From the NCBI GenBank assembly GCA_000025185.1, contig CP001848.1, positions 5,820,001 through 5,852,000 of the forward strand: 32,000 bases of DNA. Reading direction: 5' to 3'. This DNA is from Pirellula staleyi DSM 6068. Lineage in GTDB: Bacteria; Planctomycetota; Planctomycetia; Pirellulales; Pirellulaceae. A program made the translations under genes and the position numbers. The notes beneath the pieces were generated by a model, which saw only the letters and a list, made by a program, of their open reading frames with translations, had not been told where the DNA came from and made no database searches. Each line of letters starts with the position of its first letter. Position 1 is the first letter of the stretch. Positions 2,676 through 21,367 of this stretch are shown here, piece after piece.

Positions 2676-3647
2676 TTAGCGCCACAAAATCGACGGAGAG
2701 TCCTGCGACGAGCGTAGAAATCCGACGGGAAGTCGTGGGATTCCGAGGATTTCATTGGCGAGATCAAACCGCTTCCAGACTTCGGCGTCGTCCGGTGGGT
2801 CAATGATTACCAGGTTCGTTTCTACGCTCTCGAAGTTCTTGGCAGGGAGCCACGACTTGCAAGTAGGTGGTAGTAGGCCAAGCTCAACGTACTGCTCAAC
2901 AAGCGTCTTGATGCCTTGCGATAGGTACTCCTTCGCCATGGAGAACATGTCACGGTTGAACGCAGCCTCTTGGCAGCCCCAGTACAGACTTGGAAGATTC
3001 GACCCCAGCATGAGTTCGAAGCAGACGAGTTGTTGCTCCGGCCCAATTGCCAAAATATCAACCGCTCGATTGAGAAACCCGTTTTCGCCCCAGTTAGCTC
3101 TATCTTGCTGCTGCAATTTTGCTCGTTTGGCAAGCTGCTCCTGATGGAGCGGGCGATAAAACGCATCCTCTTCCGCGTCGGTTTCAAACCGGATCGACGA
3201 CCAGCGATCAAACATTAACCAGGGTGAATCGGATTGCCAGCAAACTCCATAGGATTTCAGAAGCTGGTTGGTCCAGTAACCTTCCTTGCGATCGCGGAAG
3301 AAACGTTCATCAGCCAGCAGACTGGCTGCTCGAAGGTATTGATCGATACCGGTAGCAAGTTGATCGGAGTCAAGCGTGAGCCCCATCACGTAGAGAGCTT
3401 CGTGTTCGGGTAGCTGGCGATAGCGGCGTGGGGCATTTAGCTCGATCCTCTCGTCACCTGTCGACTGCACAGTGAGCAGGCGTTCGAGCCCATGGTAAAT
3501 CTCTAGCGAATCGCCTCCTCGTATTCGGAGGTCGAATCGACACTCTTCTGTCGGATCAGAATTCCCAGTGAGCGCGATCAGCTTCCGCAAACTCGACTGC
3601 TGAAACTCACGCAAGAAACGATGACTCCAGGTATTAGGAAACTGCAT
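2676..3647 (-). CDS. Hypothetical protein with a possible degenerate PD-(D/E)xK-like core
   Basis: A 323-aa ORF with GAGGAG 5 nt upstream of the ATG (plus-strand ctcctc at about 3653-3658). The core AVDILAIGPEQQLVCFELMLGS has the D...E-x-K spacing of restriction-endonuclease-fold proteins, but Met replaces Lys. No family assignment is possible by eye. Confidence 0.7.
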   Translation of the reverse strand: MQFPNTWSHRFLREFQQSSLRKLIALTGNSDPTEECRFDLRIRGGDSLEIYHGLERLLTVQSTGDERIELNAPRRYRQLPEHEALYVMGLTLDSDQLATGIDQYLRAASLLADERFFRDRKEGYWTNQLLKSYGVCWQSDSPWLMFDRWSSIRFETDAEEDAFYRPLHQEQLAKRAKLQQQDRANWGENGFLNRAVDILAIGPEQQLVCFELMLGSNLPSLYWGCQEAAFNRDMFSMAKEYLSQGIKTLVEQYVELGLLPPTCKSWLPAKNFESVETNLVIIDPPDDAEVWKRFDLANEILGIPRLPVGFLRSSQDSPSILWR

Positions 3648-4179: not shown

Positions 4180-5475
4180 ATGAGAATTACGATTCATCGA
4201 GGAACAAAAGAAATTGGTGGCTCCTGTGTCGAGATTGCAACGACATCGACCCGAATTGTGCTCGACCTGGGACTGCCGATTGTGGATGCCAATCGAGAAC
4301 CATTCGACTCGCGACTGGCACTCACCAAATCCAACGAAGAGCTTCGGGATGAAAAAGTTATTCCCGCTATTGCGGGACTCTTCGACGAATCTCACGCACC
4401 TCCCGATGCCATTCTGTTGAGTCATGCGCATCTCGACCACGCAGGGTTGCTGCACAGGTCTCGCACCGAAGTGCCCATCTACACCACAGCTGGCACGAGC
4501 AAGATGATGCTTGCTGCTGGAGTATTTGCTGGTCAAAAATCACTTGATCGAAACCGGTTTCGTCCGGTGACCAGCCAACAAACCTATCGCATTGGCGATT
4601 TCAGCATCACTCCGCTTTCCGTCGATCACTCGATCTTTGGAAGCGTTGCCTACCTCATCGAAGGTGATGGCAAGGCCATTCTTTACACGGGAGATTTTCG
4701 AAATCATGGCCGCAAACCAGGCATGATGCGCGACCTACTTGCCTTCGTTCGAGGCAAATCGATCGATGTGCTGATTGTCGAAGGAACACATTTTGGTGGC
4801 GAGCGAGAGCAAGGACGATCGGAGTTTGAGCTAGAAGTCGAGATCAGGAGTCTGATCGAATCAGCACCGGCTCTCGTGCTGGCCTGTTTTTCTGCACTCG
4901 ACATTGATCGGCTGGTAACGATCTATAAGGCGAGTCAAGCCGCAGGACGAACCTTAGTGATCGACGCCTATGCCGCATTTGTGCTTCATTTGCTTGGCAG
5001 TTCCGTCAGTACGCCCAAGCCGACGAAGGAATATGGAATTCGAGTGTTTTTCAACGCGCATTTCGAGAAGAGAAATCTCGTTGAAATTCGCAAGAGGTTT
5101 GAAGAAGTTCAGATTGAACTTTCCGAAGTGCTTCGAGATGAGAATCGCTATGTAATGATGTTTCGTCCATCGATGCTCGCGTCTGACTTTGGTGGATCAC
5201 TGCCTAAGCCTTGCCGATGCCTCTACGGATACTGGAAGGGTTACCTCGCAAAACCCGACTGGCAGGAACTTCAAAACGTGATTGAAGGTGCCCACGGCGA
5301 CTTCATTCCCGCACACGTCAGCGGTCATGCTTACATTCGCGACATCATTGCACTTGTCGCTGCCATCCAGCCGCGCCACATCCTGCCGATTCACACCTTC
5401 TCGCCCGAGAGCTTTAACGAGCACTTTGCGAATGTAGTAGCTATCGAGGATGGTTTGCCGTATCAAGTGAACTGA
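4180..5475 (+). CDS. MBL-fold metallo-hydrolase of the beta-CASP / RNase J-like type (putative nuclease)
   Basis: N-terminus MRITIHRGTKEIGGSCVEI. HxHxDH zinc motif LLSHAHLDHAGLL. YTGDF motif. The late HVSGHA motif is typical of beta-CASP members. GAGGAAAG lies 9 nt upstream of the ATG. Confidence 0.85.
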   Translation: MRITIHRGTKEIGGSCVEIATTSTRIVLDLGLPIVDANREPFDSRLALTKSNEELRDEKVIPAIAGLFDESHAPPDAILLSHAHLDHAGLLHRSRTEVPIYTTAGTSKMMLAAGVFAGQKSLDRNRFRPVTSQQTYRIGDFSITPLSVDHSIFGSVAYLIEGDGKAILYTGDFRNHGRKPGMMRDLLAFVRGKSIDVLIVEGTHFGGEREQGRSEFELEVEIRSLIESAPALVLACFSALDIDRLVTIYKASQAAGRTLVIDAYAAFVLHLLGSSVSTPKPTKEYGIRVFFNAHFEKRNLVEIRKRFEEVQIELSEVLRDENRYVMMFRPSMLASDFGGSLPKPCRCLYGYWKGYLAKPDWQELQNVIEGAHGDFIPAHVSGHAYIRDIIALVAAIQPRHILPIHTFSPESFNEHFANVVAIEDGLPYQVN

Positions 5476-5627
5476 CATGCGGTTCTTCTCCCCACAAAAA
5501 ACGCCTATCGTTGATAAAGGTAACTTCCTTTATCGAATGCAACATCCACTTATTCTTTCGCCTAAAAAATACACTGCAGAGTGTAGTTGACGCATGCAAG
5601 TTGAAGAAGGGCGAAGTGATTGTCAAC

Positions 5628-6334
5628 TTACTTCTCCCATCGCAGCAGCACTCCGCTAAAGCGGTTAAGCCAGCTGTGAGTACCCTTGACGACCCAACGC
5701 CTAGGGCGAACCCGCCTCTTTCTCACAACTCTTGATAGCGTGCGTGGATGTGAGCATGAAACAATAACTGACCTTGCACACACATGCGACCCCCTTTTGA
5801 GTCATAAGATTTATCGAGCAGCAGGCGTTCATAAGGAGAGTAAGTATCTCGCGGTAATATTAAAAGGCAGTTCTCGAGTGTTGCTTAAAGAAGACGTGAC
5901 TTGTTGGTATAGGTTCCGGAGATGGCGAATCCAACGGGGATGCCACGAGCATCGGCCATGTGAGCACTTGGTTCCCGGCTTGGTCAGATCCGCAAGGTTT
6001 TTGCCGGTTGTTTCGCAACCGAGGGGAGATTTGGTCACCGCACCATCGATACCTTGCCAGCGCCAGTCGAGTCCCACGAGGTCGTCAAGAGGCTCAATCG
6101 CTATTTACCATAAACCGTTGAATATGCCTTACTTTACACATTGCTGACAGTAGCTGTGGGCAGTGCTGTCAGCGGCAAGGCACCATAGTACGTTTTCAAT
6201 TGACAGCCTGCGCACTTTCGGTAGAAGATGCCTTCCACTCTGTCGCTTAGCACGGTTCTTGGCCGTCCGCCCAACGGCGAAGGAACGTATAGCGACAACA
6301 GGAGCTGAATCTGCTCCCGTGATTTGTAGAGCAT
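5628..6334 (-). pseudogene. IS5-family (DDE, DUF4096 N-terminus) transposase remnant broken by stops and frameshifts
   Basis: Three fragments lie in different frames. N-terminal: GGRPRTVLSDRVEGIFYRKCAGCQLKTYYGALP, matching the GRPR...ILNGIFYVLRTGCQWR pattern. Middle: LDWRWQGIDGAVTKSPLGCETTGKN..GTK, followed by a frameshift, after which DARGIPVGFAISG reads in another frame. C-terminal: RRWVVKGTHSWLNRFSGVLLRWEK*, with its stop at 5628-5630. I could not find terminal inverted repeats. Confidence 0.75.
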
Positions 6335-6576
6335 TCGTTAGGCATCAAAAAGCTAAAGCACAATCCAAGGCGGGTCTTCTTGTAAGGGTGCGAGTACGAT
6401 AACTCTCCTTTACCAAAAGGACTCACCTCTTTTCAAATACCAGTTTCGGGTTGCCGGATAGGCTCTACCTCAAATCACACCTTTTTGTGATATGCATCGC
6501 CTCACCCCATGACAGCAACGACTCCTCTTATATATATACTCCAGAGAAATCCGTTTATGCCACAAACACAAAACGC

Positions 6577-9396
6577 TCACGCATCAATCCGAACCGTAGA
6601 ACGCTCTTCAGCTTCGTAGCACATCAAAGTCGCAATAACATCTGACACAAAATCGAGGCAAAACCTCTGAAACGTGAACTCCTCTACACTAACCTGATCC
6701 GACCACGTTTCACCACCAAAGTCAACCATTTCCCCTTTTTGTTTGTCCCATTTAAAATTATCGCCCGCCAAGTATCCAACGGTATGCATACCGAGACGGG
6801 TACCCCTGTCGGGATGATACTTCTGTGGCCCAACAGGCGCGACGATCCACGGACTACCTGGAACCTTATGGAAGGCTGCGACACTTGGATCAGGTGCACC
6901 ACCAAGAGTAACATGATCTTGAATACGAGCATATGGATCATACTTTGATCGACTCACTGTATATTCCACATATGCATCGGAATCACAAATAACACTTCCA
7001 CAGTAGCCATTATCACTGACATGGCCTGGCGGGGACGCATCCTGCCTATCTTGAGAGCCAACGCAGATCGCACCTTGACGACGCCCACCTCCACACCTAT
7101 TCAAAACAAATAATCGAGCCCTTTGCAACCCACACTCTGGCGACACAAGCGCCGACAGCAAGCCATCAATAACGCTACGACGAAAAGTCGCCACCTTAAC
7201 CCTTTCGCCCCAAGACTTCCCTTCATCAACTGGACTAAGCTTGTCAGCAACTCTTTGTAAAAACTGAAGCGAACGTCCGTTTGTAGTCGCAGCGTAATTC
7301 GAGGATTCAGGCTCATTTGCGAGAAGGTGAAGTATACGCCTTGCCCGCTCGAGACCACGCCAAAACCTTTTTCTCCAGACTGGCTCGGACTTATTAGGCA
7401 AAGTGGTCCGTTCATAAGATACCTGACCAGCAAGCCCCGACCACCCAACAAATACCCCCGCCGTATATCCTCGCACATGAACAGGGAAGGCATAAATCGG
7501 ACCTTCAATTTGAAAGAATTCTTTTCCCCTCTTGGCCATAACTGCTGGGCAAGAATTCAAGCACATCTCAGCATCAGCCAGCTTAATAGTTCTCCGCTCT
7601 CTAAATGCTTCACACGCAAGAGACTGCTCTTCAAAACTGTAATCCCAGAGATCTCGCCCCGCCCTCTCCTTCTCTGAGTCAGTCCTTAGTGGAGCTTCAA
7701 GCTTTCCGCGAAATGGATCGATCTGATACAACAGGCATTGCAAATCAAGATCATCTAGATCACGACTACGCCGCAGAATCTCCTGCAATTTTATCGGACT
7801 ATCGCTGTATTTCTTAAGGCACTTGGCAGAGTCGGAAAGTCGATTTGCTTCATATCTCGCCGCACCAATCCTTCCAGCAAAGTCTCTAGCTACTTCAAAA
7901 TGATACTTGGAGAACATATATCCAGCGCCAGCCTCTAATGTGAGAACTCCCGATCGTCGTCCATCGACATATATTGGCACCAAAAGCGCGGTTTTCGTAC
8001 TAGGGTTCTGTGGTTTGAAATGAATATCGACAAACCCCTGGCGATCCAACTCAATAGCACTATGATCGACACTCTCAATTAAGGCGAAGTCGTCATCTAT
8101 TTTGCGCTGCAAGAAGAGTCGGCTTTGGATCACATTATTTGGAACCTGAACTGCGGAATATGATTCCTGACGCAATCCAGTTGGCTGTTTCAAATCGACT
8201 AAGTACGTTACAGTCTGATCAGTTTCTCGATGCGAGAACATCCGATAAATTACACGATGCTCCGCTAAATTCGGCATAGTCATGCAAACATCTCCGTAGG
8301 GAACACCTAGACGAAGCATTAGGGTTTGCAAGAGCCAAGAGGTCTGTAGTCGTTCGCTCGGAGCCTTAAGGTGGGTCGAAGGATCTGGTAAATACTGCGC
8401 CCGGCCGAAACGAAACGGTTGTGAACGTCCGGAAAACGCAGCCAATCCCCCTAAATGCGCAATGGTCGCGGCGACTCCACCGGTAATTGGATCGTTGGGT
8501 AATGAAGGTGCATTTATCTCATTAGCAACTATTGTCCGAATATTGTATGATCGCTCCAGAACTTCAGAATAACCTGGGTCATAAAACCTTCGAGGAAATA
8601 TTGCGTAATGCGGTCCGAACACATCTCCGTATAGCGACTTAGCTTCATCCATCAGGGACAGAAGATCGGGATCGGAAAAGCTTACCCCTGTGAACAGGAA
8701 GGTTCGGGTAGCCAAGAGCATTCGAAGACAATGTAGTAACGATTCGTTTACCTGCATCAAATCACGGTAGTGTGAGCGAGCAAGAACAACGGATTGTCGT
8801 ATTGCATAGTCTCCATGCAACTTTAGAACGCAGAAGATTCCAGACCTCAAGTTCTGGAGTACATCATGTGGATTTTGCCAAGTAAGGCGAGGAACCGATG
8901 AGTGATAGGCAGACTCTAGGAGGCAGTCATAGTTCGTAGTGATAGCCAAAGAAAATGGAATGGCCGCAATTGTTCGATGAATAGCGGTTGGAACTGATGC
9001 GTTCCCAAATACTCTGTGAGTTAAGTTTTGCAGACGATTGCCTAGTACGTTTTGCAACATCTCTGCGGCAACTAAAAAATCTCCCGATGCAATTCGCCTA
9101 GATATGCTTGCTGCAGTCGCCCTCGAGTAGAGCCTCGCCTCTTGCTCTAGTGTTTCGAGAAATCCTACCCAACCAGGTAAACCTGCCGCCAAAGAGGCGC
9201 CAGCACCTAAGTAGACGACGCTATTCCCACGAGCAATCGCCTCAATTAACTCTGTTGAACGGGCAGTCAATTGTCCAGACGCCTCAACGGTTTCCGGATT
9301 CTCCATCCGATCCAATATACTATGACTGCGGCGTTCTTCTAAAGGTGTATTCCAATCTCTATCGAAGAACATGGTAGTTGAAGTCATTTTGAGCAC
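6577..9396 (-). CDS. SIR2-like (SIR2_2 type) putative NADase with three tandem GAF-like modules
   Basis: SIR2_2 motifs: VVYLGAGASLAAGLPGW (aa 60-76), ITTNYDCLLE (Asn155), LKLHGDY (His194), FLFTGVSFSDPDLL. GAF-like signatures: TALLVPIYVDGRRSGVLTLEA...FEVARDFAGRIGAARYEANRL (about aa 350-520), GPIYAFPVHVRGYTAGVFVGWS (about aa 540-695), SPWIVAPVGP...GMHTVGYLAGDN (about aa 710-925). The track start at 9396 is GTG. The ATG at 9387 has GAGGTG 6 nt upstream and is the more likely start. Confidence 0.85.
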   Translation of the reverse strand: MLKMTSTTMFFDRDWNTPLEERRSHSILDRMENPETVEASGQLTARSTELIEAIARGNSVVYLGAGASLAAGLPGWVGFLETLEQEARLYSRATAASISRRIASGDFLVAAEMLQNVLGNRLQNLTHRVFGNASVPTAIHRTIAAIPFSLAITTNYDCLLESAYHSSVPRLTWQNPHDVLQNLRSGIFCVLKLHGDYAIRQSVVLARSHYRDLMQVNESLLHCLRMLLATRTFLFTGVSFSDPDLLSLMDEAKSLYGDVFGPHYAIFPRRFYDPGYSEVLERSYNIRTIVANEINAPSLPNDPITGGVAATIAHLGGLAAFSGRSQPFRFGRAQYLPDPSTHLKAPSERLQTSWLLQTLMLRLGVPYGDVCMTMPNLAEHRVIYRMFSHRETDQTVTYLVDLKQPTGLRQESYSAVQVPNNVIQSRLFLQRKIDDDFALIESVDHSAIELDRQGFVDIHFKPQNPSTKTALLVPIYVDGRRSGVLTLEAGAGYMFSKYHFEVARDFAGRIGAARYEANRLSDSAKCLKKYSDSPIKLQEILRRSRDLDDLDLQCLLYQIDPFRGKLEAPLRTDSEKERAGRDLWDYSFEEQSLACEAFRERRTIKLADAEMCLNSCPAVMAKRGKEFFQIEGPIYAFPVHVRGYTAGVFVGWSGLAGQVSYERTTLPNKSEPVWRKRFWRGLERARRILHLLANEPESSNYAATTNGRSLQFLQRVADKLSPVDEGKSWGERVKVATFRRSVIDGLLSALVSPECGLQRARLFVLNRCGGGRRQGAICVGSQDRQDASPPGHVSDNGYCGSVICDSDAYVEYTVSRSKYDPYARIQDHVTLGGAPDPSVAAFHKVPGSPWIVAPVGPQKYHPDRGTRLGMHTVGYLAGDNFKWDKQKGEMVDFGGETWSDQVSVEEFTFQRFCLDFVSDVIATLMCYEAEERSTVRIDA

Positions 9397-9460
9397 CTCG
9401 TCGAACTGATTCTGCAGAATAGCCTTTCTAAGTTTCGCTCATTCCGACGAGGTTCTACCG

Positions 9461-9495
9461 CAAAAAGGCAGCTGTTGCAAATAGAAAACAGCTAC
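9461..9495 (-). terminator. Rho-independent terminator-like hairpin between the STAND gene and the SIR2 gene
   Basis: The minus strand reads GTAGCTGTT-ttctatttgc-AACAGCTGC followed by CTTTTTG. That is a 9-bp stem with one G-U pair and a 10-nt loop, followed by five T residues. It starts about 60 nt after the STAND stop codon at 9556. Confidence 0.5.
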
Positions 9496-9555
9496 ATTTC
9501 GAACGGCTAAATAATTGTGGGAAAGACTGTTCGATATTCCAGATCGCGGTAGGTA

Positions 9556-12500
9556 TTAATCCTCGAATCTCTGCCCTTGACGGATGCGTTCCCTTGCCTC
9601 CCCATGCCGCTCATCTGAAATTTTGCCTATGAGCTTCTGGTACCGATTTTTAGCCCAATCCGCTACTTCGCTTCTTTCATCACTCTGCAGCGGAATCATC
9701 AAAGCAGACCTAGCCTCAAGTATCGAAGCCCTTGAACCGCTCCATGCTAAAAAGTCAAACAATGACTGCGAAATGCTTTCCAGAGTCAAAACCGGGTTCG
9801 GACTCTGATTGACGATCACCATCGCTATGGGCCTCCAGCACATCGGTTGCCCTGCCTCTCCTTTCACGAATGACGTGATGCATGCAGCGATCTTCGCGTA
9901 GCGTACGTGTGGCTCACGACGGCACCAATTCAGCAACTGTTCATCTGGTATTTGGTCGAAGGGATTCCCGTAGGGCCCCCACAGCATTTTGTACATGCTC
10001 CAATCTCGTCGCCTCTCTGCGTCGCCATCGATGAAGCTGTCCAAGAATAATGCCGGTCGAGCATTCGCGAGTTTGTTCATTGTTCTCGGATAGTCATATC
10101 GTGAAATGCTGTGACGAGTAATCCCGGCTGACAAGCCTTCGCACAGATTTCGAGCGGCAACGCCCCCGGCTTTGGATGTGATACAATTCTTTATAAGCCC
10201 CCCAAGGTGATAGTCCCGATCTTGACTCCGTGAGGTCTTTTCTGGGAATTTAAATTGCGAGAGAAAATGCCTTGCGAACCGTAGAATCTGATTTCTCGTC
10301 CGTGGACTGTGATCATTGCTCAGTCGCGAATCCAGAGCTTCGATCACAAAGTCGGCTCCACCTTCCAGTTCCATCACTACTCGCAGGAACTTGACTAGCT
10401 CCTTGTCTCCAAGACTCACCTGAACCCCAGCGTAGCAGAGCCTTCGCAAAGAATTGACATCCTGAAGTCTGCCTTGCAAAGCCTTTCTCAGCCGACTGAG
10501 CGATTCCGCATTCAACGGGAAGGCCAGTTGCAAATCTGGAAAAACCTGTGAAAACGTGTTGTCGGTAACCAAGATGTCCATTGCAGTACCAAACAGACTG
10601 CGATCTGAATCATGAATGCCTGCCAAGTAGCCGTATATGACTCCAAACCGGCGCTCTTTCGGACTCGCGCTAACATACTCATACCTCAATTGTGTTAGCA
10701 GTTTGAGATAATCCGAAGCTCCCTTCGCCAATCCTCTTCCGAATGCAAACACTCGCTGGCTATCGCAACGGACAACCTCCGGCAGTAGCGACTCTAAATC
10801 ATCGGCAAAACCGGAGGCCAATTGACGACCGCAGTCCTCTGCAATCTCTGCCGCCCTCAGATACGCCCCTTCAAAATCCATACCGTCGCTATCCTCAAGA
10901 ACAAGCTCAGTAGAATGTCGACTGCTGGACAGGGCGAAAGCCCGAGTCCTAGCAACAAGATCCTGCGGTTTCAAGATTTGCTCAAGCTCCTTAGCAGCAT
11001 CTACACTCTCGGTCGGCAAATGCTTGCGACGACTCAGTATTTCCCGCACAGTGACCCAGCCTTCGTACCACCCTCGATACTCATGTAATTGTCGCGCTAC
11101 CGCGATGATCTGATCAAACTGCCGCGTGTGAATCCAAAGTCCAAATAGGACTTTTGCGAAACACTCACGTACCGCATTCGAATCGCCATCCTCCCTGTTA
11201 GAAAACTTCTCCACAACGAGCAAGAAGGCACGCAGCCACTCTCTTAGATCAGCAGTTGACGTAGGTGAGTACCCAGAGTCTCGAATGCGGGCACCGAAAT
11301 CGTACTCGTAAGACGAATCATCCCTTTCTGTCTTCAGCGCCGACTCAAGCATTAACACTCCTAACCGTCGTTCCTTAGCTTCTGTAGATTCAAGTAGCTG
11401 CGCTACGAAAGTCGCTCTCGCATTGGGTGACGCATGAGTGCCAGAATGCCGAATTTGCAACAAAACTGAGAGGAAGTGTCGCGATGTTGAACCACTCTGC
11501 TCGTCTTCATGCATTGCGAAAGCTACGAGAATGGTTGCAGCTCGATGAAAGAGTGAGGCGTCAAACGCCAAGTGCCAAATCAACTTCGTTAACTTCGGTC
11601 TGTGCGAACTGAGCGTAGTCCTAGCCAGGGTATCGTCCTTCGCGATCCCAACCTCAATAGCGGAGAGCGTAGCGCTTGGAGCAATGGGTGCTATGTTCTC
11701 GAAAACCGCGAAGCCGAGATCGTTCAATTTATCAACAGCACTCCCGATCAACCCTCCAGGCTGCAACCAGTCAGTTGCAATACGTGTCGCAACCGAAGAA
11801 TGGTGAAGAAACCCTAGTCTTCGGGCAAACGATTTTAGCAGCCTCTCGTCTGACGTTTGAAAGTGCCTTACCAGGGTCTCGGTCGGAATCGAAGCCAACG
11901 CCCTGTTGGCCAGATAATTCGCGATAGCGTGAGGGAGAATCGCGCGCCATGGACCTCGAATCTGCACAAGGTCTCGGCGTTGCAGCTCCGCAACTTGTCG
12001 ATAAAGCTCGGAACTCGAAGTTTCGATTAGGATGGCCAGTCTGTTCAGCTCTGAAGTTGACTCCACGCCTTCTCCGTTGAAGGAATAAACCAGAGAGCAC
12101 GCCTCAGCGGCCCGAAGCAATGCTTCGTTGGGTTGATGGCGTTGCCAAAACAGTCGGACGAATAGATCGTCGTTCCGGAGTGATATGATTGATTCGCCGA
12201 GCGATACGGTGGATGCCAACGCAATGGCGATTCGATAGTTGCCGCCAGAAAACTTAGCAATCTTCTGAGCGTTCGCATCGCCGATATGAGGAAAACGCTT
12301 TGATAAGAAAGTGTCGATTACATCTTCACTTGCTGGCCGTAGTTTAACGGCATTCGTATTCTCCGGAACGTCATCTCGAACATCATACTCGACAGTAAGC
12401 AGACTCAATAGGCTTGGTTCGCAGGTGCAAATGTCTGCCAGATGCTTGTGAAGCTCTGGCGGACAGTTGTCGACAATCAGAATTGCACGACGCTTTTCTT

Positions 12501-13377
12501 GGACCAAAGACTCGGCAAAGGTAATCGGATCTGGCATGAGCCGACTGGAGTTGTCCGCGTATAGTGCTAAATCGCGATTCAAAGAGAACTGGGAAAGGCG
12601 TTCATCAAAGAGCGCCTGTACAAAACGTGTCTTACCTGTACCCGAGAGGCCAGTCAGGCGAATTGCGGTACGGGGATTCGATAGTTGCGTGGATAATGAG
12701 TGCAGAGCATCGACGACCGAAAAATCGGTATCGAGTGATCGAGCGAAATCCTGCACAACAAGAGAATCATCGATTATGTATTCGTCCTCAATTCCACCAA
12801 ACGCATGTGCCCAGTTTTCATAGCCCTTCCAGCCCGTGATCGGTCTTCCACACTTGGTCCGAACCCAGGCAGCAAGAGATGGATGGCACTTCACCCACTG
12901 CGCAACGCGATCTGCCCCGAGGAAGTCAATGTGGAAAGACTTTGGTCGCTTGGCCCAACCAATTGCATGCTTCATGGCGTCCCTTCGACCACGTAGGCCT
13001 TTGTCAGTTGGCGACTCCTTCGAAGTTACGATCAAGTATGAACCGCCGTTTGTAGCGAGATCGCGAATTGAAGTCCTCAGGCTTCCATCTGGCCGCATCT
13101 CGCTCATGATCGCGGATGGGGGCATCCTGGATGTCTTGACTTGAATCCCGGTATACGAACGAGGAATGAAGCTCTTCGTTGGAAGCGGGCCGGCTGCCTT
13201 AACTACTACGTCGAGTCCGCCATCAGCGGCATCCTGGTGGCCCCCTGCAGTAATCGAGGAAAGTGAAATGCCTGCATTGCGAATTTCAGCTTCGCATAAT
13301 AAGACGACCAGGGTGCGAAAGTCTGCATCTCCTAGTTTTTCAATGTCTTTGCGATCAATTTCGAGAGGATTACTCAT
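9556..13377 (-). CDS. STAND-type P-loop NTPase (Avs-like architecture): Mrr-like PD-(D/E)xK N-terminal domain, NTPase, long alpha-helical C-terminal region
   Basis: N-terminal domain: DADFRTLVVLLCEAE...GGHQDAADGGLDVVV...YTGIQVKTS...GGSYLIVTS, which follows the Mrr-cat pattern (F..LV..L, DGGxD, QxK, xxTTS). Walker A: LTGLSGTGKTRF (aa 241-252). Walker B: RAILIVDNC (aa 297-305). About 950 further residues are Leu/Ala/Arg-rich and have helical-repeat character. Confidence 0.85.
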   Translation of the reverse strand: MSNPLEIDRKDIEKLGDADFRTLVVLLCEAEIRNAGISLSSITAGGHQDAADGGLDVVVKAAGPLPTKSFIPRSYTGIQVKTSRMPPSAIMSEMRPDGSLRTSIRDLATNGGSYLIVTSKESPTDKGLRGRRDAMKHAIGWAKRPKSFHIDFLGADRVAQWVKCHPSLAAWVRTKCGRPITGWKGYENWAHAFGGIEDEYIIDDSLVVQDFARSLDTDFSVVDALHSLSTQLSNPRTAIRLTGLSGTGKTRFVQALFDERLSQFSLNRDLALYADNSSRLMPDPITFAESLVQEKRRAILIVDNCPPELHKHLADICTCEPSLLSLLTVEYDVRDDVPENTNAVKLRPASEDVIDTFLSKRFPHIGDANAQKIAKFSGGNYRIAIALASTVSLGESIISLRNDDLFVRLFWQRHQPNEALLRAAEACSLVYSFNGEGVESTSELNRLAILIETSSSELYRQVAELQRRDLVQIRGPWRAILPHAIANYLANRALASIPTETLVRHFQTSDERLLKSFARRLGFLHHSSVATRIATDWLQPGGLIGSAVDKLNDLGFAVFENIAPIAPSATLSAIEVGIAKDDTLARTTLSSHRPKLTKLIWHLAFDASLFHRAATILVAFAMHEDEQSGSTSRHFLSVLLQIRHSGTHASPNARATFVAQLLESTEAKERRLGVLMLESALKTERDDSSYEYDFGARIRDSGYSPTSTADLREWLRAFLLVVEKFSNREDGDSNAVRECFAKVLFGLWIHTRQFDQIIAVARQLHEYRGWYEGWVTVREILSRRKHLPTESVDAAKELEQILKPQDLVARTRAFALSSSRHSTELVLEDSDGMDFEGAYLRAAEIAEDCGRQLASGFADDLESLLPEVVRCDSQRVFAFGRGLAKGASDYLKLLTQLRYEYVSASPKERRFGVIYGYLAGIHDSDRSLFGTAMDILVTDNTFSQVFPDLQLAFPLNAESLSRLRKALQGRLQDVNSLRRLCYAGVQVSLGDKELVKFLRVVMELEGGADFVIEALDSRLSNDHSPRTRNQILRFARHFLSQFKFPEKTSRSQDRDYHLGGLIKNCITSKAGGVAARNLCEGLSAGITRHSISRYDYPRTMNKLANARPALFLDSFIDGDAERRRDWSMYKMLWGPYGNPFDQIPDEQLLNWCRREPHVRYAKIAACITSFVKGEAGQPMCWRPIAMVIVNQSPNPVLTLESISQSLFDFLAWSGSRASILEARSALMIPLQSDERSEVADWAKNRYQKLIGKISDERHGEARERIRQGQRFED

Positions 13378-13717
13378 TGCTTTTCAAACGCCCGCCGATG
13401 CTTCCAATGATTTCGATTTCCTCCGTTGCAGTAAGTCGATGCAATGTAACTTGCGCAACAGATGGGCAACAATCCGACCGAGCCAAATTTTCAGACGCCG
13501 AAAACCTTACTTGGTCTATTTTAGCAAACAAGTGGTTACCGCTCAGGCCATTTTGAGGAAGCGGCATAACGCCTCCCCCTACCAACTGCGCAAGTTCTTC
13601 CGTCAGGAGGAACACACTAATTGCACCGAAGTTAATTCTCCACATTCGCAGCAACATCGCCACTCGGTGAGTCCACACAATGACGCCCCCTGGGAGTCCC
13701 GCTGGCACGTCCATCAA
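13370..13717 (-). CDS. Small ORF translationally coupled to the STAND gene (real start may be the ATG at 13567, giving 65 aa)
   Basis: Its stop overlaps the STAND start as ATGAGTAA (8-nt overlap at 13370-13377). The internal ATG at 13567 is preceded by GGGGGAGG with a 4-nt spacer. The C-terminus is LTATEEIEIIGSIGGRLKSNE. The region is otherwise of uncertain coding status. Confidence 0.35.
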   Translation of the reverse strand: MMDVPAGLPGGVIVWTHRVAMLLRMWRINFGAISVFLLTEELAQLVGGGVMPLPQNGLSGNHLFAKIDQVRFSASENLARSDCCPSVAQVTLHRLTATEEIEIIGSIGGRLKSNE

Positions 13718-14325
13718 ATGCCCTGCCCAGGTTTATCGCCGATATTGGACAAACGCGTTAAACAAATCCACTATGATCATAATACCTATCAGAGAGCAAG
13801 TCGTGTACCGGACCCTAAAATCGGGAGTCCCTCATTGGCATCCCCATCAACTTCGACATTGCTTGTTGCTGTACGTAGAACCCATTGCAAGACTGTCCAA
13901 TTTTTAAATTTTCGTTCTTCCTAACGCGGTATATAAATAGTCGTTGAAGGAAGTCTCACGATAGCTGGAGAGAACACTTTGATCATGTTGATCCAGCAGA
14001 GGGAGTTGTTTCGTCCTCTGTCCCCAAAGCATGAATCATCGGCACGTGGCGGCATGTAGCGAATAGCTAAATCTTCCATGTCTCGATGGAATCTTGTGGG
14101 GGGCGCGTAGTGGAGCCTGCTAGAAGGACCAGCCCAGCACTTTCCTTCACCAAGCATCTGTTAGCGGCTACTTGCCGAGTGAGAAGATGCTGGTGCATCT
14201 TTTTGAACGCGACTTTAAATGAACGCTTCTGGGAACTTAAAGGCTTAGGCAGTTCGTCCTCTTCGTCTTTCCACTCTTCACCTCAGATCGGGGCTCGCCA
14301 GCAGCTTGGTGCATCTGAAGTATGG

Positions 14326-15204
14326 CTACATCTGAGTGATGGTTGTCGACTGAAAATCACTTGCGCCAAATACAACTCGAACAGATGGAATGAGTGTGTC
14401 GCCAATCGATGCAATGAACGGCCATTCTTTGCCCCGGATACTCCGAGCGTTGCGGCCCAAGTAGTAGCTTTCGGGAGCGAGCACAATGAGCAATGGCCGA
14501 GCATCACGGCTGGGAAGAGTTTGCTCAAATCCAGCAGGGATTTTGCGTGCTGGTTTCATCTTCCAGCGTGCGAAACCACGCAAGATTTTGTCGAAGTTGG
14601 GTTGGCGATGCAAACAGGCAAGATAATCGAGGCCTTCCAAAATTGCAGTGAGCGGAGCGTTGCCGTTGACCAATTTGGCTTCCAGCACAACGAGTCCGCC
14701 GCCCGCAGTAATACCGATCAAGTCGGCTCGTCGTCCCTTCTCGGCTGATCCACCTTGTGTTGGCCACTGATAGCCAAGTAGCCAGATCTTTTCGCTGCCT
14801 AGTGTGAGGCAGCCATCTCCGGCGTGTGCAGCACGAAACAGCCTGGCGACCTGTCGCTCTTCACACTCACCATCTTCGAGCGGATGGGAATCACGATCGA
14901 TAAAGACTTCGCCGCTATAGCCAACTTTTAATTCGCGTTGTCGCTGAAACTCGGCGTCGAGCATCGCGCCGAGCAATACCGGCCAGAGCGGACGATTTCC
15001 ACGCACCTGCTGAAGTTCCAACAGCCAAGTTCGAAAGCCAGTTGGCTCGACACTTTTGGGGACCATTTTGACGACCACTTCGCGAAGGGACTGTGACATC
15101 CCCTGGCGAAACTCCGCATCTCGTCGGCTGCGATGTCGTGCAATAAGCAACGCAACATCGCATTCCACGATGCCACCAGTAGGTCGATGGCATAACTGCC
15201 CCAC
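14326..15204 (-). CDS. PD-(D/E)xK (restriction-endonuclease-fold) family protein
   Basis: The core GRRADLIGITAGGGLVVLEAKLVNG is a textbook D-x(n)-E-x-K arrangement. The track start is GTG. Internal ATGs at aa 36 and aa 47 are alternative starts. The gene is divergent from the HTH gene at 15269. Confidence 0.65.
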   Translation of the reverse strand: MGQLCHRPTGGIVECDVALLIARHRSRRDAEFRQGMSQSLREVVVKMVPKSVEPTGFRTWLLELQQVRGNRPLWPVLLGAMLDAEFQRQRELKVGYSGEVFIDRDSHPLEDGECEERQVARLFRAAHAGDGCLTLGSEKIWLLGYQWPTQGGSAEKGRRADLIGITAGGGLVVLEAKLVNGNAPLTAILEGLDYLACLHRQPNFDKILRGFARWKMKPARKIPAGFEQTLPSRDARPLLIVLAPESYYLGRNARSIRGKEWPFIASIGDTLIPSVRVVFGASDFQSTTITQM

Positions 15205-15268
15205 TGTCGTCAGAGCGTGGCACTATGTTCGTCGTTTTGCTCCAAACCAGCGAACAAACGATTCGAGC

Positions 15269-15700
15269 ATGGCTAAAAGACGAACGGAACGCCCCGATCC
15301 AGATAGGCGGCTGCGCCAAGCGGAAAAGATCGCCAGACATTTGCGGCTACTCAAGATGATTCTTGGACCAGGTAGGTGGGATGCTGATTCTCTGGCTCGC
15401 GAACTAGATTGCAGTGCTCGTACGGTGCACCGAACATTGCAGGCACTGACTCTGGCTGGAATCCCGTGGTTCTTTTGTCGCGAGACAGAATCCTACAGAG
15501 TGCGAGATGGATTTCGATTTCCAGGTCTCAAAGAGTCTTCAACGGATGAATCGTCGACAACGCAATCGACGGTTTTGACTCCTGCTGTAGTTGGGAGACT
15601 CAAGCGACTTTCTGCCAACGGGAAAAAGCTAACCTCCATATTGCAAGTAGTCTGCGATGAAGCCGAGGAGCTAAGCAGAATAATAAGTGCCTCGATTTAG
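15269..15700 (+). CDS. Short HTH transcriptional regulator (DeoR/YafY-type HTH_11-like N-terminus, no WYL domain)
   Basis: From the ATG at 15269: MAKRRTERPDPDRRLRQAEKIARHLRLLKMILGPGRWDADSLARELDCSARTVHRTLQALTLAGIPWFF..SYRVRDGFRFP. The upstream part of the 214-aa track ORF overlaps the divergent gene and looks non-coding. Confidence 0.7.
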   Translation: MAKRRTERPDPDRRLRQAEKIARHLRLLKMILGPGRWDADSLARELDCSARTVHRTLQALTLAGIPWFFCRETESYRVRDGFRFPGLKESSTDESSTTQSTVLTPAVVGRLKRLSANGKKLTSILQVVCDEAEELSRIISASI

Positions 15701-16290
15701 CTTTTTTTTCAAATACCTCAACCGCATCCCCATCGCGATCTAAGAAACACTAGATGGATATTAACACCCAACGATTTGTCTTTGATTCAATCGCTTTAAA
15801 TACAACTCCCAATTTCATTGCAATCCCTGTGTAAGGCGTCTTACGGATTTCGTTTATTCCACAGCGAAAAATGCGACTTTCAAATCGCCATTTTGCTCGC
15901 CGACAAAAACGACGCTGTAAGCCCCTAGCCTGCTCCCCCGAGCTTGCTCGATGTACCACGAAGGTCTTAACCGCTCCTCAGGGATAAGGGAAAAACTTTT
16001 TGGCGGGTGAAAAACCGCACAGGCAGCCACTTTTCGCCCACCCTGCGAAGAAATCTTTTCTAACGAGACTTTTCGTGAATTCTAGCTCCGATAGAATGAA
16101 TTTAAAGTTGCTATAAAGCGCACCACCGGTCTTCAGAGTATGTCGATCGTGATCCTAAACGGCGGGGATGACAACGGTGCGTTTTCTAAAGAGTTGTTGG
16201 GCTTGAACATGACAACGCGGGTGTTCCCTGCTCGCACCATGGAATTGCCAACATTTACCGCGATTATTCGCGGCATGTTGGGAGTTTCGT

Positions 16291-16493
16291 ATGCGTTACG
16301 TAAGTCTTCAAGAAATTGCGCAGGTTTTTGGCATCTCTGTTAGGACCCTCTACCGCCTGAGGGCCGCAGGTAGACTTCCTCGCCCGATCCAAATCGGCCG
16401 ACGCATGTCCTACTGTGTTGAGGAAATGCATCGCCATTTCCAAGCAGGAAAATGCGCACCCTCGCGAACTATCAGCAAGGGAGGGAAGTCCTA

Positions 16494-16494
<1 letters not shown>
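16291..16494 (+). CDS. AlpA/excisionase-family HTH DNA-binding protein
   Basis: MRYVSLQEIAQVFGISVRTLYRLRAAGRLPRPIQIGRR fits the HTH_17/MerR-like Xis pattern. GGGAG lies 6 nt upstream. Its stop overlaps the integrase start as TAATG. Confidence 0.8.
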
Positions 16495-18181
<1,687 letters not shown>

Positions 18182-18197
18182 TCGCGTTGTGTCACCA

Positions 18198-18225
18198 ATT
18201 TTAACGCACGGTTTGTGGCTCGCAA
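18198..18225 (-). promoter_or_regulatory. Candidate sigma70-like promoter for tRNA-Asp
   Basis: The minus strand reads TTGCGA, a 16-nt spacer, then TAAAAT. The -10 element ends 16 nt before the mature tRNA 5' end. Promoter rules for this lineage are uncertain. Confidence 0.35.
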
Positions 18226-18820
18226 GGGTATGAGCCACGAACCAGCAGGTACTCCGGGCGGTTTTCGGTAAGTTGTTGCCGGATATGCCACTTATAGCGA
18301 CAACTTTGATCCCCCAAGGGGCCCGAGGTCGTGGCTTGTGGCCAGATCACAGCAACAAAATGGATGGCCGCTGGGGAGTACCTTGGCAGACAACCTTAGT
18401 AGACCCCTCCCCTGCCTGAAGGTTCGCGGAAAACAGCCGACAGTTGCCCGAAAATGATCAGCAGTCAGAAGTTACCAGCAATTACTCGCGACAGAACTCC
18501 CACGACAGAAGTGCGAGCTACGTTTTCAAAACGGCACCGTGCTGCGCGGGGGAAATTTCCAGCCGCAGACTCGCCGGAAGTGCCGCTGCTATGCAAGCAA
18601 GGGTTCTGTCATGCTCTATCAACTGTCGTACTACCTTCACAAAGTGACTTCCATGGCCAGCCACCTCGAGCGGCAGCACTGGATTTTGCTGTCGGTCGGC
18701 ATTTTGCTGCTGGGGATCGTTTGCATGCGTGGGTTTGGATCGCGCACGCAGTACTAACAGCCCCGTCCAGCTGGCGGCTGCAGAGCGAGTGACAAATACC
18801 AGCTGCTGAGGCAGCTTCTC

Positions 18821-19792
18821 TTAAAACAGCGTTTCGTCGGGCTCGCGACCGGCAAGTTCTTTGGCCTTCTCGAAGTCGGATTTGCGGGCCGCCTCGTCCT
18901 CGAGTGCGCCGTGGATGAGCGAGCGGTGGTAGTAGATCACCGCCATCCCTTGGTCTTCGATTTTCTCGAGGGCCTTCTCTTCGCGCGGATCAACGATCCG
19001 AGAAGCGTTTTCAGAGCGCAAGATGCTCATTTTCTCGCGCAGCGTTTCCTGAAGCGCAATGGCTCGATCGAGATCAGCCTTGGCCTCTTTCTGTCGGCCG
19101 AGGCGGTAGTAGATGAACCCGCGAGTGTCGAGCATCGCGGCACTTTGGGGATCGATTTCGAGAGCCGCATTCACGTCGGTCAGTGCTTTCTCGAGGTCAA
19201 TATTCCCCACCGCACGCGCGTAGGCCAAGCCATTGAGCGCTTCGACACGTTCGGGAAAACCAGTCGCCACACTGCGACGCTCGAGCTCTACCCAGTCGGC
19301 AATAGCCGCTTCATGCTGCCCCAAAAACTGGCGAATCTTCGATCGTTCGACGAGCAAGAAGGGGGTCTCGCCCAGTTTGTTCACTGCGGTATTGATGTCG
19401 GCGAGTGCGGCGTCGAATTGTCGCATTTCGGTTCGCCAGCGAGCACGTTCCACCAGGAATCGGGGCTCTTCGGCGTCCCACTCCATTGCTTCTTCAAGTT
19501 TCGCGAGAGCAGCCTCTTGCTTACCGTCGGCCCACGCTTCGACAGCAGCTGCATACTTCCACCGCGCCACCTCCGAAGGAATCTCGATGATCGACACCAC
19601 ACCCAGCACGATCATGGTGGTGATGAGCCACATCCGCCACCACGTTGCGAAACCAGAACTGGGAGTGGCAGGTTCGCGCGATGCTGGATTGCCAAGAGCG
19701 CGGGGCTTACTCCCGGGCGATGCTGGGCCTTTGGGTGACGATGAAGGATCGCTCGACAACGTTCTAGTCCTCTCGAAAAATCTCGCTATCAA
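18821..19792 (-). CDS. TPR-repeat protein with an N-terminal membrane anchor
   Basis: TM segment WWRMWLITTMIVLGVVSII. TPR-like repeats, for example ALEIDPQSAAMLDTRGFIYYRLGRQKEAKADLDRAIAL. The track start is TTG, and the internal ATG at MWLITT is an alternative start. Confidence 0.8.
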   Translation of the reverse strand: MIARFFERTRTLSSDPSSSPKGPASPGSKPRALGNPASREPATPSSGFATWWRMWLITTMIVLGVVSIIEIPSEVARWKYAAAVEAWADGKQEAALAKLEEAMEWDAEEPRFLVERARWRTEMRQFDAALADINTAVNKLGETPFLLVERSKIRQFLGQHEAAIADWVELERRSVATGFPERVEALNGLAYARAVGNIDLEKALTDVNAALEIDPQSAAMLDTRGFIYYRLGRQKEAKADLDRAIALQETLREKMSILRSENASRIVDPREEKALEKIEDQGMAVIYYHRSLIHGALEDEAARKSDFEKAKELAGREPDETLF

Positions 19793-20085
19793 TCGACTCG
19801 GCAGCCGATTGCGACTTTGCCTTTACCCTATTTAGTGTAGGCGAGATGGGGAGCGATGACTTCAGGTCGTGCGCAAGAATCTCGCCGGTTGGAAGTGAGA
19901 TTGCGCAAGCTCTTCGGCCAACGATCTTTACGCGAGAGCCCGCCTTTGCCTCGCGACACTCCCTACGCTCGGAGGGAGCTAGCGGCCCCATCGCGCATTC
20001 TTCATCCCCAGATAGTCGTGCAAGATTCGAGCGGCACTGGTAACATAAGTCAGGGCATCGACTCGAACGTATTAGCGGAGATTCT

Positions 20086-21297
20086 GTGATGAAACGACTC
20101 AACCTGGCTCGGGCGACTTGGAAGCTGGCAATCGCAGCCTCTCTCGCGCTGCCTGTCGCGAGCAATTTGGCGGCTGATGAGCCCGTTTCTCCAACCGCTG
20201 AGATCGCGCTTCCCACCCCCGTTTCTGCCGAGCAAATCGAGCAGTGGGGGGCGGAGATGGATTCGAGTAGTTTCTCGGAGCGCCAGGCCGCTGCCAACAA
20301 ACTGGGCGAACTTGGCAAAACGGCGTTTCCTACGCTCGAAAAAATTGCGGCAGGCGAGAGCCGCGAAGCATCGGCGCGGGCCATGGAAATCCTGAAGCGT
20401 CACCTCGACGACGGGGACGAAACCACACGATCGGCTGCCAAGGAATGCCTCGAGCGACTCGCGAAGTGCGATAACGAAGCTTTAGCTCGCCGCGCCACGC
20501 AAGCGCTGACACCTCCCGAAGAGGAACAAAACGCCCAGATTTTCGCCCCGCAGATTGTTCCCGCGATTCGGATTGCTCAAGCGCGGGCACAGATTCAAAT
20601 CCGTGCTGGTGGCAACAATGTCAAACGAGTGACCATCAAAAACAACAACGGCATTCGCGACATCGAAGCGGAAGAGAATGGTCGCAAGGTGAAGATCACC
20701 GACGATCCCAACAACGGGATCAAGATGGAAGTGACCGAAAAAGAAGGGGCGAAGGAAGTCAAGAAAGAGTACAGCGCCAAAAATGCGGCTGAACTCAAAG
20801 AGAAGCATCCCGAAGCTCATAAGATTTATGAGCAGTATGGCAATCAGGGTGGCATCCAAATCAACGGTGGCGGTGGTATTCAAATCCAGCAAGGGGGTTT
20901 GATTCCTGTGATGCCAGCGCCGGGTGGTGCTGTCGACAAAGATGCCTTGAAGCGTCAGCTCGAGAACATCAATCGCATGATCGAGCAAGTGAAGAAGACC
21001 CAGCAAGATATGCAGCAGCGCGGGCTTCCCAACGGCAACTTCGACCCCATCATTCAGCGGCTCGAAGAAACGAAAGCGCGGCTCGAACAGCAGCAAGGTG
21101 CCGCCCCTGCTCCGGCGGCTGAGAATGCCGAGAAACCGGCTACGGAAGAAGCTCCGAAGAGCAGCACGCCTGCTCCGAATACCCCTGCTTCTCAGGACCA
21201 ACCAGAGGGGGCACAAGCAGCGGCTAGTGCTTCCGCTTCAGCTTCGGCCAGCAGTGATGGCCGAGAAGTGAAAGCGGAAGTGAAGATCGACAAATAG
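20086..21297 (+). CDS. Secreted hypothetical protein with HEAT-like repeats and a low-complexity C-terminus
   Basis: Signal-peptide-like N-terminus MKRLNLARATWKLAIAASLALPVASNLAADEP (ATG at 20089). HEAT-like segment SERQAAANKLGELGKTAFPTLEKIAAGESREASARAMEIL. A GGIQINGGGGIQIQQGG stretch and an Ala/Pro/Ser-rich tail. Confidence 0.75.
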   Translation: MMKRLNLARATWKLAIAASLALPVASNLAADEPVSPTAEIALPTPVSAEQIEQWGAEMDSSSFSERQAAANKLGELGKTAFPTLEKIAAGESREASARAMEILKRHLDDGDETTRSAAKECLERLAKCDNEALARRATQALTPPEEEQNAQIFAPQIVPAIRIAQARAQIQIRAGGNNVKRVTIKNNNGIRDIEAEENGRKVKITDDPNNGIKMEVTEKEGAKEVKKEYSAKNAAELKEKHPEAHKIYEQYGNQGGIQINGGGGIQIQQGGLIPVMPAPGGAVDKDALKRQLENINRMIEQVKKTQQDMQQRGLPNGNFDPIIQRLEETKARLEQQQGAAPAPAAENAEKPATEEAPKSSTPAPNTPASQDQPEGAQAAASASASASASSDGREVKAEVKIDK

Positions 21298-21367
21298 AGG
21301 TCGCTGCTTTTGGGATGTCGCATGATCGGACTATCGCTTCGTAGCCGATCAGCAGGCTCGGCGAATC

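Follow-up and report, generated by a model that had tools for sequence, protein, structure and literature searches.

The locus considered here raises the question of whether several genes of defence type that lie together in a bacterial genome form one immune system or more than one. It belongs to the planctomycete Pirellula staleyi DSM 6068 and was analysed within a window of 32,000 nucleotides (nt) of contig CP001848.1 (assembly GCA_000025185.1, positions 5,820,001 to 5,852,000), from whose first letter the window coordinates are counted. Two long open reading frames (ORFs) run in the same direction on the minus strand, one coding for a protein of 1273 amino acids (aa) and the other for a 939-aa protein in which a SIR2 domain precedes three GAF-like modules, here called SIR2-GAFx3 (Table 1). 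The original prediction described these genes and a small upstream ORF as a candidate undescribed defence locus of coupled genes, and allowed for either one system with two effectors or two stacked single-gene systems. The best explanation, which taken as a whole is considered probable, is that two independent single-gene immune systems stand side by side, namely Avs8A and SIR2-GAFx3 as a self-contained sensor-effector, on a horizontally acquired island at a tRNA-Asp gene.

The 1273-aa gene turned out to belong to an already named system, and the description of the locus as undescribed fails for it. The PADLOC model PD-Lambda-4_A (PDLC03991) matches the protein over its full length (aa 6-1272 on positions 5-1283 of 1283; E 1.5e-275, 915 bits), and an Escherichia coli chromosomal protein scores 2107 bits with the same model. 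BLASTP aligns residues 5-1272 of the P. staleyi protein with E. coli PD-lambda-4A at 30% identity, 3% gaps and E 6e-160, the alignment reaching residue 1272 of 1273. The family comprises more than 1910 proteins at E ≤ 1e-10, nearly all of about 1278 aa and about 40% identical to the P. staleyi protein, which is annotated as ‘conserved hypothetical protein’. Judged by its sequence, the 1273-aa protein is a full-length member of the characterised Avs8 / PD-lambda-4_A system. The predicted layout of a nuclease-type N-terminus, a Walker A/B NTPase and a large helical sensor was borne out by motifs as well as by the PADLOC match. In the N-terminal region, the D52/D56...Q79-x-K81 motif is invariant across 21 homologues and aligned with E. 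coli Avs8A. Pfam Mrr_cat found no match in the P. staleyi protein, so the assignment of an Mrr-type fold rests on Nagy et al. (bioRxiv 10.1101/2025.07.02.662641). The Walker A motif GLSGTGKT (aa 243-250) has G243, G246, G248, K249 and T250 invariant in the same homologues, as are D303 and N304 of the Walker B motif ILIVDN. PDB sequences, searched with the single sequence or with a profile, gave no match.

PD-lambda-4, renamed Avs8 by Nagy et al. (bioRxiv 10.1101/2025.07.02.662641), was first defined in E. coli as a two-gene operon, although E. coli Avs8A alone confers full defence and Avs8B is dispensable. According to the same study, E. coli Avs8A binds the major capsid proteins of lambda (gpE) and Bas21 with nanomolar affinity, the capsid-bound protein degrades double-stranded DNA in a reaction requiring Mg2+ and ATP, and mutants of the nuclease active site lose defence. 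A survey of the Avs family (bioRxiv 10.64898/2026.01.04.697583) independently lists Avs8 (PD-lambda-4) as a capsid-sensing STAND. By homology with E. coli Avs8A, the C-terminal helical sensor of the P. staleyi protein would bind the monomer of a major capsid protein of the HK97 fold; the STAND core, which is ATP-dependent, would then oligomerise, and the N-terminal Mrr-type nuclease would degrade DNA and so abort the infection. The P. staleyi protein itself shows the family membership and the intact motifs, and capsid sensing and DNase activity are predicted for it from E. coli. The finding extends a characterised capsid-sensing receptor to Planctomycetota, which helps annotation and is unsurprising.

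Whether Avs8A and SIR2-GAFx3 belong together was examined through their neighbourhoods in other genomes, using tblastn and gene lists with flanks of up to 10 kb where the contig permits. The sample consisted of 13 other SIR2-GAFx3 loci (L001, L002, L004, L005, L006, L007, L081, L083, L085, L178, L179, L180 and the P0002 contig) and nine other Avs8A loci (L087, L088, L090 and L172-L177) from metagenomes, plasmids of six genera and one E. coli chromosome. Adjacency of homologues of the two large genes had been set beforehand as a check, and they were never neighbours: Avs8A lay near none of the 13 SIR2-GAFx3 genes, and SIR2-GAF near none of the nine Avs8A genes. The neighbours of Avs8A differ at each locus and include toxin-antitoxin pairs, an XhoI-type restriction-modification pair, an AAA ATPase with a helicase, an Abi/PD-T4-5-like gene, an AbiP2 reverse transcriptase and insertion sequences. 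Avs8A travels as a single gene whose neighbours keep changing. The Avs8A gene of E. coli STEC434 (L177) is flanked by a 351-aa protein without a PADLOC match (4677-5732, +) and, on the other side, by an AbiP2-type defence reverse transcriptase (10075-11613, +). No PD-Lambda-4_B match was found near this gene, with the presence of the B model in the library unconfirmed, suggesting that even in E. coli some Avs8A genes lack the Avs8B partner; with the same limit, none of 13 island ORFs of P. staleyi matched PD-Lambda-4_B. A 929-aa gene that follows an Anatilimnocola Avs8A was considered as a relative of SIR2-GAF and rejected, being unrelated and having an N-terminus that resembles a signal peptide.

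The 159-nt intergenic gap between the two P. staleyi genes contains a stable hairpin followed by a U run (-20 kcal/mol, z-score -4.1; 0/200 shuffles fold as well), which is likely a terminator after Avs8A. A simple terminator scan limited to loops of 3-8 nt missed this hairpin, which has a loop of 10 nt, and a promoter/terminator consensus scan was uninformative, with sites no commoner than in shuffles. These observations bear on the idea of one integrated operon, to which the small ORF may or may not belong and whose capsid sensor, Avs8A, would trigger DNA cleavage together with NAD+ depletion. Such an operon would account for the adjacency and shared direction of the genes across a short gap and for the defence-type character of both proteins, and would recall the original two-gene operon of E. 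coli PD-lambda-4. It is nevertheless very improbable in view of the hairpin and U run, the lack of co-occurrence at every other locus sampled, the ability of E. coli Avs8A to act without Avs8B, and the fact that SIR2-GAFx3 matched no PD-Lambda-4 model. Of the two options in the original prediction, that of two stacked systems is favoured and that of one system is not.

The small ORF had been proposed as one of the coupled genes. It ends (TAA) inside ...ATGAGTAA..., where it overlaps the Avs8A ATG by 8 nt, and this part of the proposal stands; a role in the system is not confirmed. The ORF could be a real, translationally coupled, lineage-specific regulator or leader of Avs8A. In favour are the overlap of its stop with the start of Avs8A, a GC content by codon position (0.569/0.431/0.517) nearly equal to that of Avs8A, a slightly positive codon log-likelihood, and the fact that an annotation pipeline called its 114-aa version, giving a singleton UniParc entry. 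This interpretation is improbable, however, as model scans returned no family or domain match, no homologue other than itself was found among 5.8 billion proteins, and the regions upstream of six further Avs8A genes, searched up to E 10, and of three more (L175-L177), searched at E 0.01, contained nothing similar. Avs8A homologues also start at the same N-terminal residues without such a partner. The small ORF is regarded as an orphan outside the conserved Avs8 unit, unsupported rather than refuted, as its codon-position GC looks coding. Because it is an orphan, the picture of three coupled genes is not supported.

The 939-aa protein (Psta_4469) is the sole new part of the locus. Its database copy has 936 aa, with the start at ATG 9387. 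Pfam SIR2_2 (PF13289) matches aa 150-289 (E 2.8e-31), and the closest PADLOC model is ThsA (aa 49-269, E 1.6e-28), the match covering the SIR2 half only and ending at position 225 of 478. The PADLOC models LmuA, Dsr2 (aa 129-246 only), Dsr1, pAgo-SIR2 and PDC-S25/PDC-S65 likewise match the SIR2 part only, and NCBIfam Dsr2 gives 15.7 bits against a cut-off of 1400. A family profile searched against PDB sequences finds ThsA (9e-30), KomC (7e-21) and DSR2 (5e-18), and also FAM118B, while Foldseek with the SIR2 part returns KomC, ThsA and DSR2 at E 1e-12 to 1e-10, KomC being the top match (E 2.9e-12). An AlphaFold model built on the alignment was confident, with a predicted local distance difference test score (pLDDT) of 84.6 and a predicted template modelling score of 0.83. 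The GAGAS loop and the TTNYD and KLHGD motifs are present. N155, D157, H194 and the GAGxS loop residues are invariant in 28 full-length SIR2-GAF homologues, which agrees with the claim of an intact SIR2 core carrying Asn155 and His194. The CxxC zinc motif of the zinc ribbon is absent from the family alignment. On motifs, profiles and predicted fold, the SIR2 domain is an intact defence-type NADase core of the ThsA/KomC/DSR2 type.

The three GAF-like modules claimed for the rest of the protein are supported unevenly. For module 1, Pfam GAF_2 matches in part and falls short of the gathering score (E 2.2e-5), GAF matches at aa 456-513 (E 0.0059), and GAF_2 or GAF is recorded in the precomputed Pfam annotation of most SIR2-GAF homologues. 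The family profile also matches two small GAF proteins among PDB sequences, Ta0848 and 3o5y. Module 2 aligns with module 1 in hhalign (probability 78.5%, E 1.7e-5). Module 3 shows weak Pfam GAF matches in only 2/7 homologues (E 0.0025 and 0.032). Module 3 nevertheless accounts for the majority of conserved polar residues in GAFx3 (R759, R761, D807, R816, Q826, D836, K844 and D879) and for this reason is a candidate ligand or partner site. The secondary-structure pattern repeats three times in the C-terminal region, every repeat closing with a long helix. An AlphaFold model of aa 330-939 (pLDDT 86.7) matches, at a Foldseek probability of 1.00, the tandem GAFs of CyaB2 (1ykd), PDE2A, PDE5 and PDE6 as well as the PAS-GAF-PHY unit of phytochromes, the latter in alignments of about 600 columns. 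The non-SIR2 part of the full-length model likewise matches the tandem GAF domains of CyaB2. The canonical NKFDE cyclic-nucleotide motif was not seen in the GAF modules when the sequence was read by eye.

The SIR2-GAFx3 architecture is fixed and rare, and the family is unnamed. About 31 full-length relatives came out of a word-indexed search, distributed over Planctomycetota, Bacteroidota, Verrucomicrobiota and various metagenome-assembled genomes. The GAFx3 part by itself, used in an exhaustive HMMER search, yielded 117 cluster representatives at E ≤ 0.001, with 72 at E ≤ 1e-10, and SIR2 was present in every full-length protein that carried the whole GAFx3 module. The weak tail of the search was made up of multi-GAF histidine kinases of the ordinary sort and a single GAF-GAF-GAF-TIR protein, which confirms that the GAFx3 part is homologous to true GAF domains; its sequence homology to canonical multi-GAF histidine kinases is weak. 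The GAF-TIR protein (P0263, 866 aa) carries three canonical GAF domains and a C-terminal TIR_2, a second GAF array fused to an NADase-type effector. Of the 80 loci that a genome scan gave, all but the first seven (L001-L007) were less than full length. The 939-aa protein matched no PADLOC or NCBIfam model over its full length, and a literature search for SIR2 and GAF with anti-phage terms found no relevant paper in the library covered. SIR2 NADases are recurrent immune effectors, and the systems that use them differ in how SIR2 is switched on. A fixed SIR2-GAFx3 fusion without a conserved partner gene points to a mode of sensing that is undescribed for SIR2 effectors.

From the intact NADase core, the fixed GAF fusion and the lack of a conserved partner, we infer that SIR2-GAFx3 is a self-contained sensor-effector. 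In the absence of an infection cue, SIR2 would be restrained by the GAF array. Binding of the cue, either a small molecule or a phage protein, by the array would release SIR2, probably via a change of oligomeric state as in the filaments of ThsA and KomC, and the activated SIR2 would deplete NAD+. The closest relatives of the protein in sequence and fold are all defence NADases, and recognised defence genes adjoin SIR2-GAFx3 at 4/14 loci, including Avs8A at the P. staleyi locus. A homologue of 71% identity has McrBC/SNF2 on one side and a DUF4391-methylase-ResIII set on the other. A 57%-identical homologue (L083) adjoins an 880-aa fusion of TIR_2, SIR2_2 and an SMC/AAA_15/AAA_21 ATPase (6589-9231, -). 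In a Pirellulaceae metagenome-assembled genome (L004), a type I-G (I-U) CRISPR-Cas operon that is complete (Cas3g, Cas8g, Cas7g and Cas5-6g) lies 2 kb from the homologue (14463-21624, +). Several other loci have transposases or a serine recombinase alongside, and the remaining loci have metabolic genes. The association with defence is suggestive, SIR2-GAFx3 being loosely tied to defence islands. The ATPase fusion at L083 is unusual in that it combines two NADase-type domains with an ATPase, and a 299-aa protein without a match follows it (5703-6602, -). Separately, a Peptidase_C14 (caspase-like) gene adjoins or lies within 3 kb of two distant SIR2-GAF homologues from different phyla (L006:12564-14075, - and L179:5554-7146, -), which may be coincidence.

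A non-immune role has to be weighed against this. SIR2-GAFx3 could serve in housekeeping or regulation, as an NAD-dependent deacylase or ADP-ribosyltransferase under metabolite control; databases name it ‘SIR2 family NAD-dependent protein deacylase’, GAF domains occur widely in ordinary signal transduction, as the histidine kinases in the weak tail illustrate, and 10/14 loci show no recognisable defence neighbour, some of them amid metabolic genes. Membership of SIR2_2, the exclusively defence-type close relatives, the missing CxxC motif, a rare and patchy distribution across phyla, often beside transposases, recombinases or an integrase, and the four loci in defence islands make this role rather unlikely. 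Were it nonetheless correct, the protein would be an unusual metabolite-gated SIR2 enzyme. SIR2-GAFx3 is plausibly a single-gene defence system, a variant of the theme of a SIR2 effector joined to a sensor.

The nature of the cue may also be considered. GAF domains classically bind cyclic nucleotides, the fold matches those of CyaB2, PDE2, PDE5 and PDE6, and the nearest relatives of the SIR2 domain are ThsA and KomC, both of which are switched on by small nucleotide ligands. On these grounds SIR2-GAFx3 might act as the effector of a pathway of the Thoeris, CBASS or Pycsar type, its GAFs binding a nucleotide messenger made in trans. Characterised effectors of this kind nearly always have the synthase gene next to their own, which counts against such a pathway. 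No TIR, cyclase or other signal-producing gene recurs beside SIR2-GAFx3 across the 14 loci; with the canonical cyclic nucleotide-binding motif not seen by eye, a messenger made in trans is unlikely. The island ORFs scanned gave no TIR/ThsB match, and no conserved small gene next to SIR2-GAF is shared across loci. A tentative possibility is that SIR2-GAFx3 represents a new stand-alone antiphage family, in which the helix-linked array of three GAF modules senses infection by binding a small molecule that arises during it and NAD+ depletion follows with no dedicated synthase. The molecule envisaged is a phage-made or damage-derived nucleotide or metabolite. If this is true, bacterial immune effectors would have GAF as a ligand sensor in addition to SLOG, Macro, CARF and SAVED.

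Several points weigh against the explanation by two independent immune systems. The neighbourhood samples are small, and a metagenome scan with the SIR2-GAF alignment returned generic SIR2_2 proteins only, adding no full-length locus. The two genes run in the same direction 159 nt apart, and read-through co-transcription of Avs8A and SIR2-GAFx3 could still occur in P. staleyi. The ten loci lacking a recognisable defence neighbour loosen the tie of SIR2-GAFx3 to immunity, module 3 is GAF-like mainly by its predicted fold and is the least well supported of the three, and no GAF ligand can be named. Finally, at only 30% identity to the E. coli protein, P. staleyi Avs8A could have a different ligand.

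Table 1. Features of the P. staleyi locus (positions in the window)
Feature	Position	Strand	Basis
Avs8A / PD-lambda-4_A orthologue, 1273 aa: Mrr-type nuclease, STAND P-loop NTPase, helical sensor	9556..13377	-	PADLOC, BLASTP
Avs8A N-terminal Mrr-like PD-(D/E)xK nuclease region, ~aa 1-200, boundaries approximate	12778..13377	-	motif; literature domain assignment
Avs8A STAND NTPase core, ~aa 225-420, boundaries approximate	12118..12705	-	Walker motifs; weak Pfam AAA_16 match, aa 223-260
Avs8A C-terminal helical sensor (predicted), ~aa 421-1272	9559..12117	-	alignment with E. coli Avs8A to C-terminus; PADLOC PDLC03990, PDLC03989
SIR2-GAFx3 protein, 939 aa, Psta_4469	6577..9396	-	AlphaFold model; 28-sequence alignment
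SIR2 NADase-type domain, aa 45-330	8407..9264	-	Pfam SIR2_2, PADLOC, profile vs PDB, Foldseek
GAF-like module 1, aa 345-531	7804..8364	-	Pfam GAF_2, GAF; GAF chains by profile
GAF-like module 2, aa 532-697	7306..7803	-	hhalign vs module 1; tandem-GAF fold matches
Divergent GAF-like module 3, aa 705-932	6601..7284	-	fold; conserved residues; weak Pfam GAF in homologues
Stable hairpin + U run, likely Avs8A terminator	9455..9515	-	RNA fold, shuffles
Small ORF, 115 aa from TTG, 114 aa from ATG 13714	13370..13717	-	orphan; 8-nt overlap with Avs8A start
Tyrosine integrase with HTH_17 domain, island edge	16452..18170	+	Pfam Phage_integrase 2.4e-8 + HTH_17
tRNA-Asp (GTC), likely integration site	18107-18181	-	ARAGORN

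The setting of the locus is that of an integrase-linked island, as had been claimed. The G+C content is 0.46-0.52 across the locus stretch and 0.55-0.60 in the flanks, and the low-GC stretch is bounded on its right side by a tyrosine integrase abutting tRNA-Asp. As listed, the integrase ORF extends about 64 nt into the opposite-strand tRNA gene (window 18107-18170). No att direct repeat or second copy of the tRNA-Asp 3′ end was found within the window, leaving the left (far) boundary of the island undefined. A megablast search with 6400-14000 gave no match in E. coli genomes, indicating that the locus is not enterobacterial. A degraded DDE transposase of the IS5/IS4 type (window 5600-6340, -) adjoins the SIR2-GAF gene on its downstream side and can be read over several frames (...GKNLADLTKPGTKCSHMADARGIPVGFAISG... 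and ...RWVVKGTHSWLNRFSGVLLRWEK*), with a weak Pfam DDE_Tnp_1_2 match (E 0.0085) to the last 30 aa only. Upstream of the small ORF and Avs8A, a 292-aa ORF that could not be annotated (14326-15204, -) is divergent from an HTH_11 / WYL-type regulator (15056-15700, +; PADLOC ‘WYL’ E 3e-8), a type that often controls defence islands. Another divergent pair in the low-GC island consists of a 323-aa protein without a family match (2676-3647, -) and a 431-aa protein with a metallo-beta-lactamase fold and an RMMBL domain (4180-5475, +). Neither has a PADLOC match, and the pair could be another island cargo module.

Compared with known systems, the P. staleyi Avs8A resembles E. coli ECOR07 Avs8A in its length, in the order of its domains and in its D..QxK and Walker A/B motifs, and differs from it in being a planctomycete protein of 30% identity with no Avs8B-like partner detected among the island ORFs. 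Avs5 (SIR2-STAND) carries SIR2 and STAND in one polypeptide, whereas here they lie in separate genes that do not co-occur elsewhere. For SIR2-GAFx3, Thoeris ThsA is the closest SIR2 by sequence and among the closest by fold, and it similarly places an N-terminal SIR2 with the catalytic Asn and His before a C-terminal ligand-binding sensor. The C-terminus of ThsA is, however, a SLOG or Macro domain instead of three GAF-like modules, and its ThsB/TIR partner has no counterpart among the island ORFs scanned or recurring at other loci. In the Kongming system, the SIR2 protein KomC is activated by deoxyinosine triphosphate (dITP) through KomB. KomC is the top structural match to the SIR2 domain, and a small nucleotide switches it on through filaments; it nonetheless consists of SIR2 only (264-278 aa) and depends on partner proteins, unlike the 939-aa protein with its fused sensor and no conserved partner found. 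The C-terminal 600 aa share their fold and the helix-linked tandem array with the GAF regulators CyaB2, PDE2/5/6 and phytochrome PAS-GAF-PHY, which regulate cyclases, phosphodiesterases or kinases and not SIR2, and from which SIR2-GAFx3 departs in that no NKFDE motif was seen by eye and in its highly divergent module 3. In DSR2 the sensor is helical and binds the phage tail tube, and DSR2 does not match the 939-aa protein outside SIR2. In overall organisation, DSR2/DSR1 provide the best functional analogy, each being one large stand-alone polypeptide that joins an N-terminal SIR2 NADase to a C-terminal sensor.

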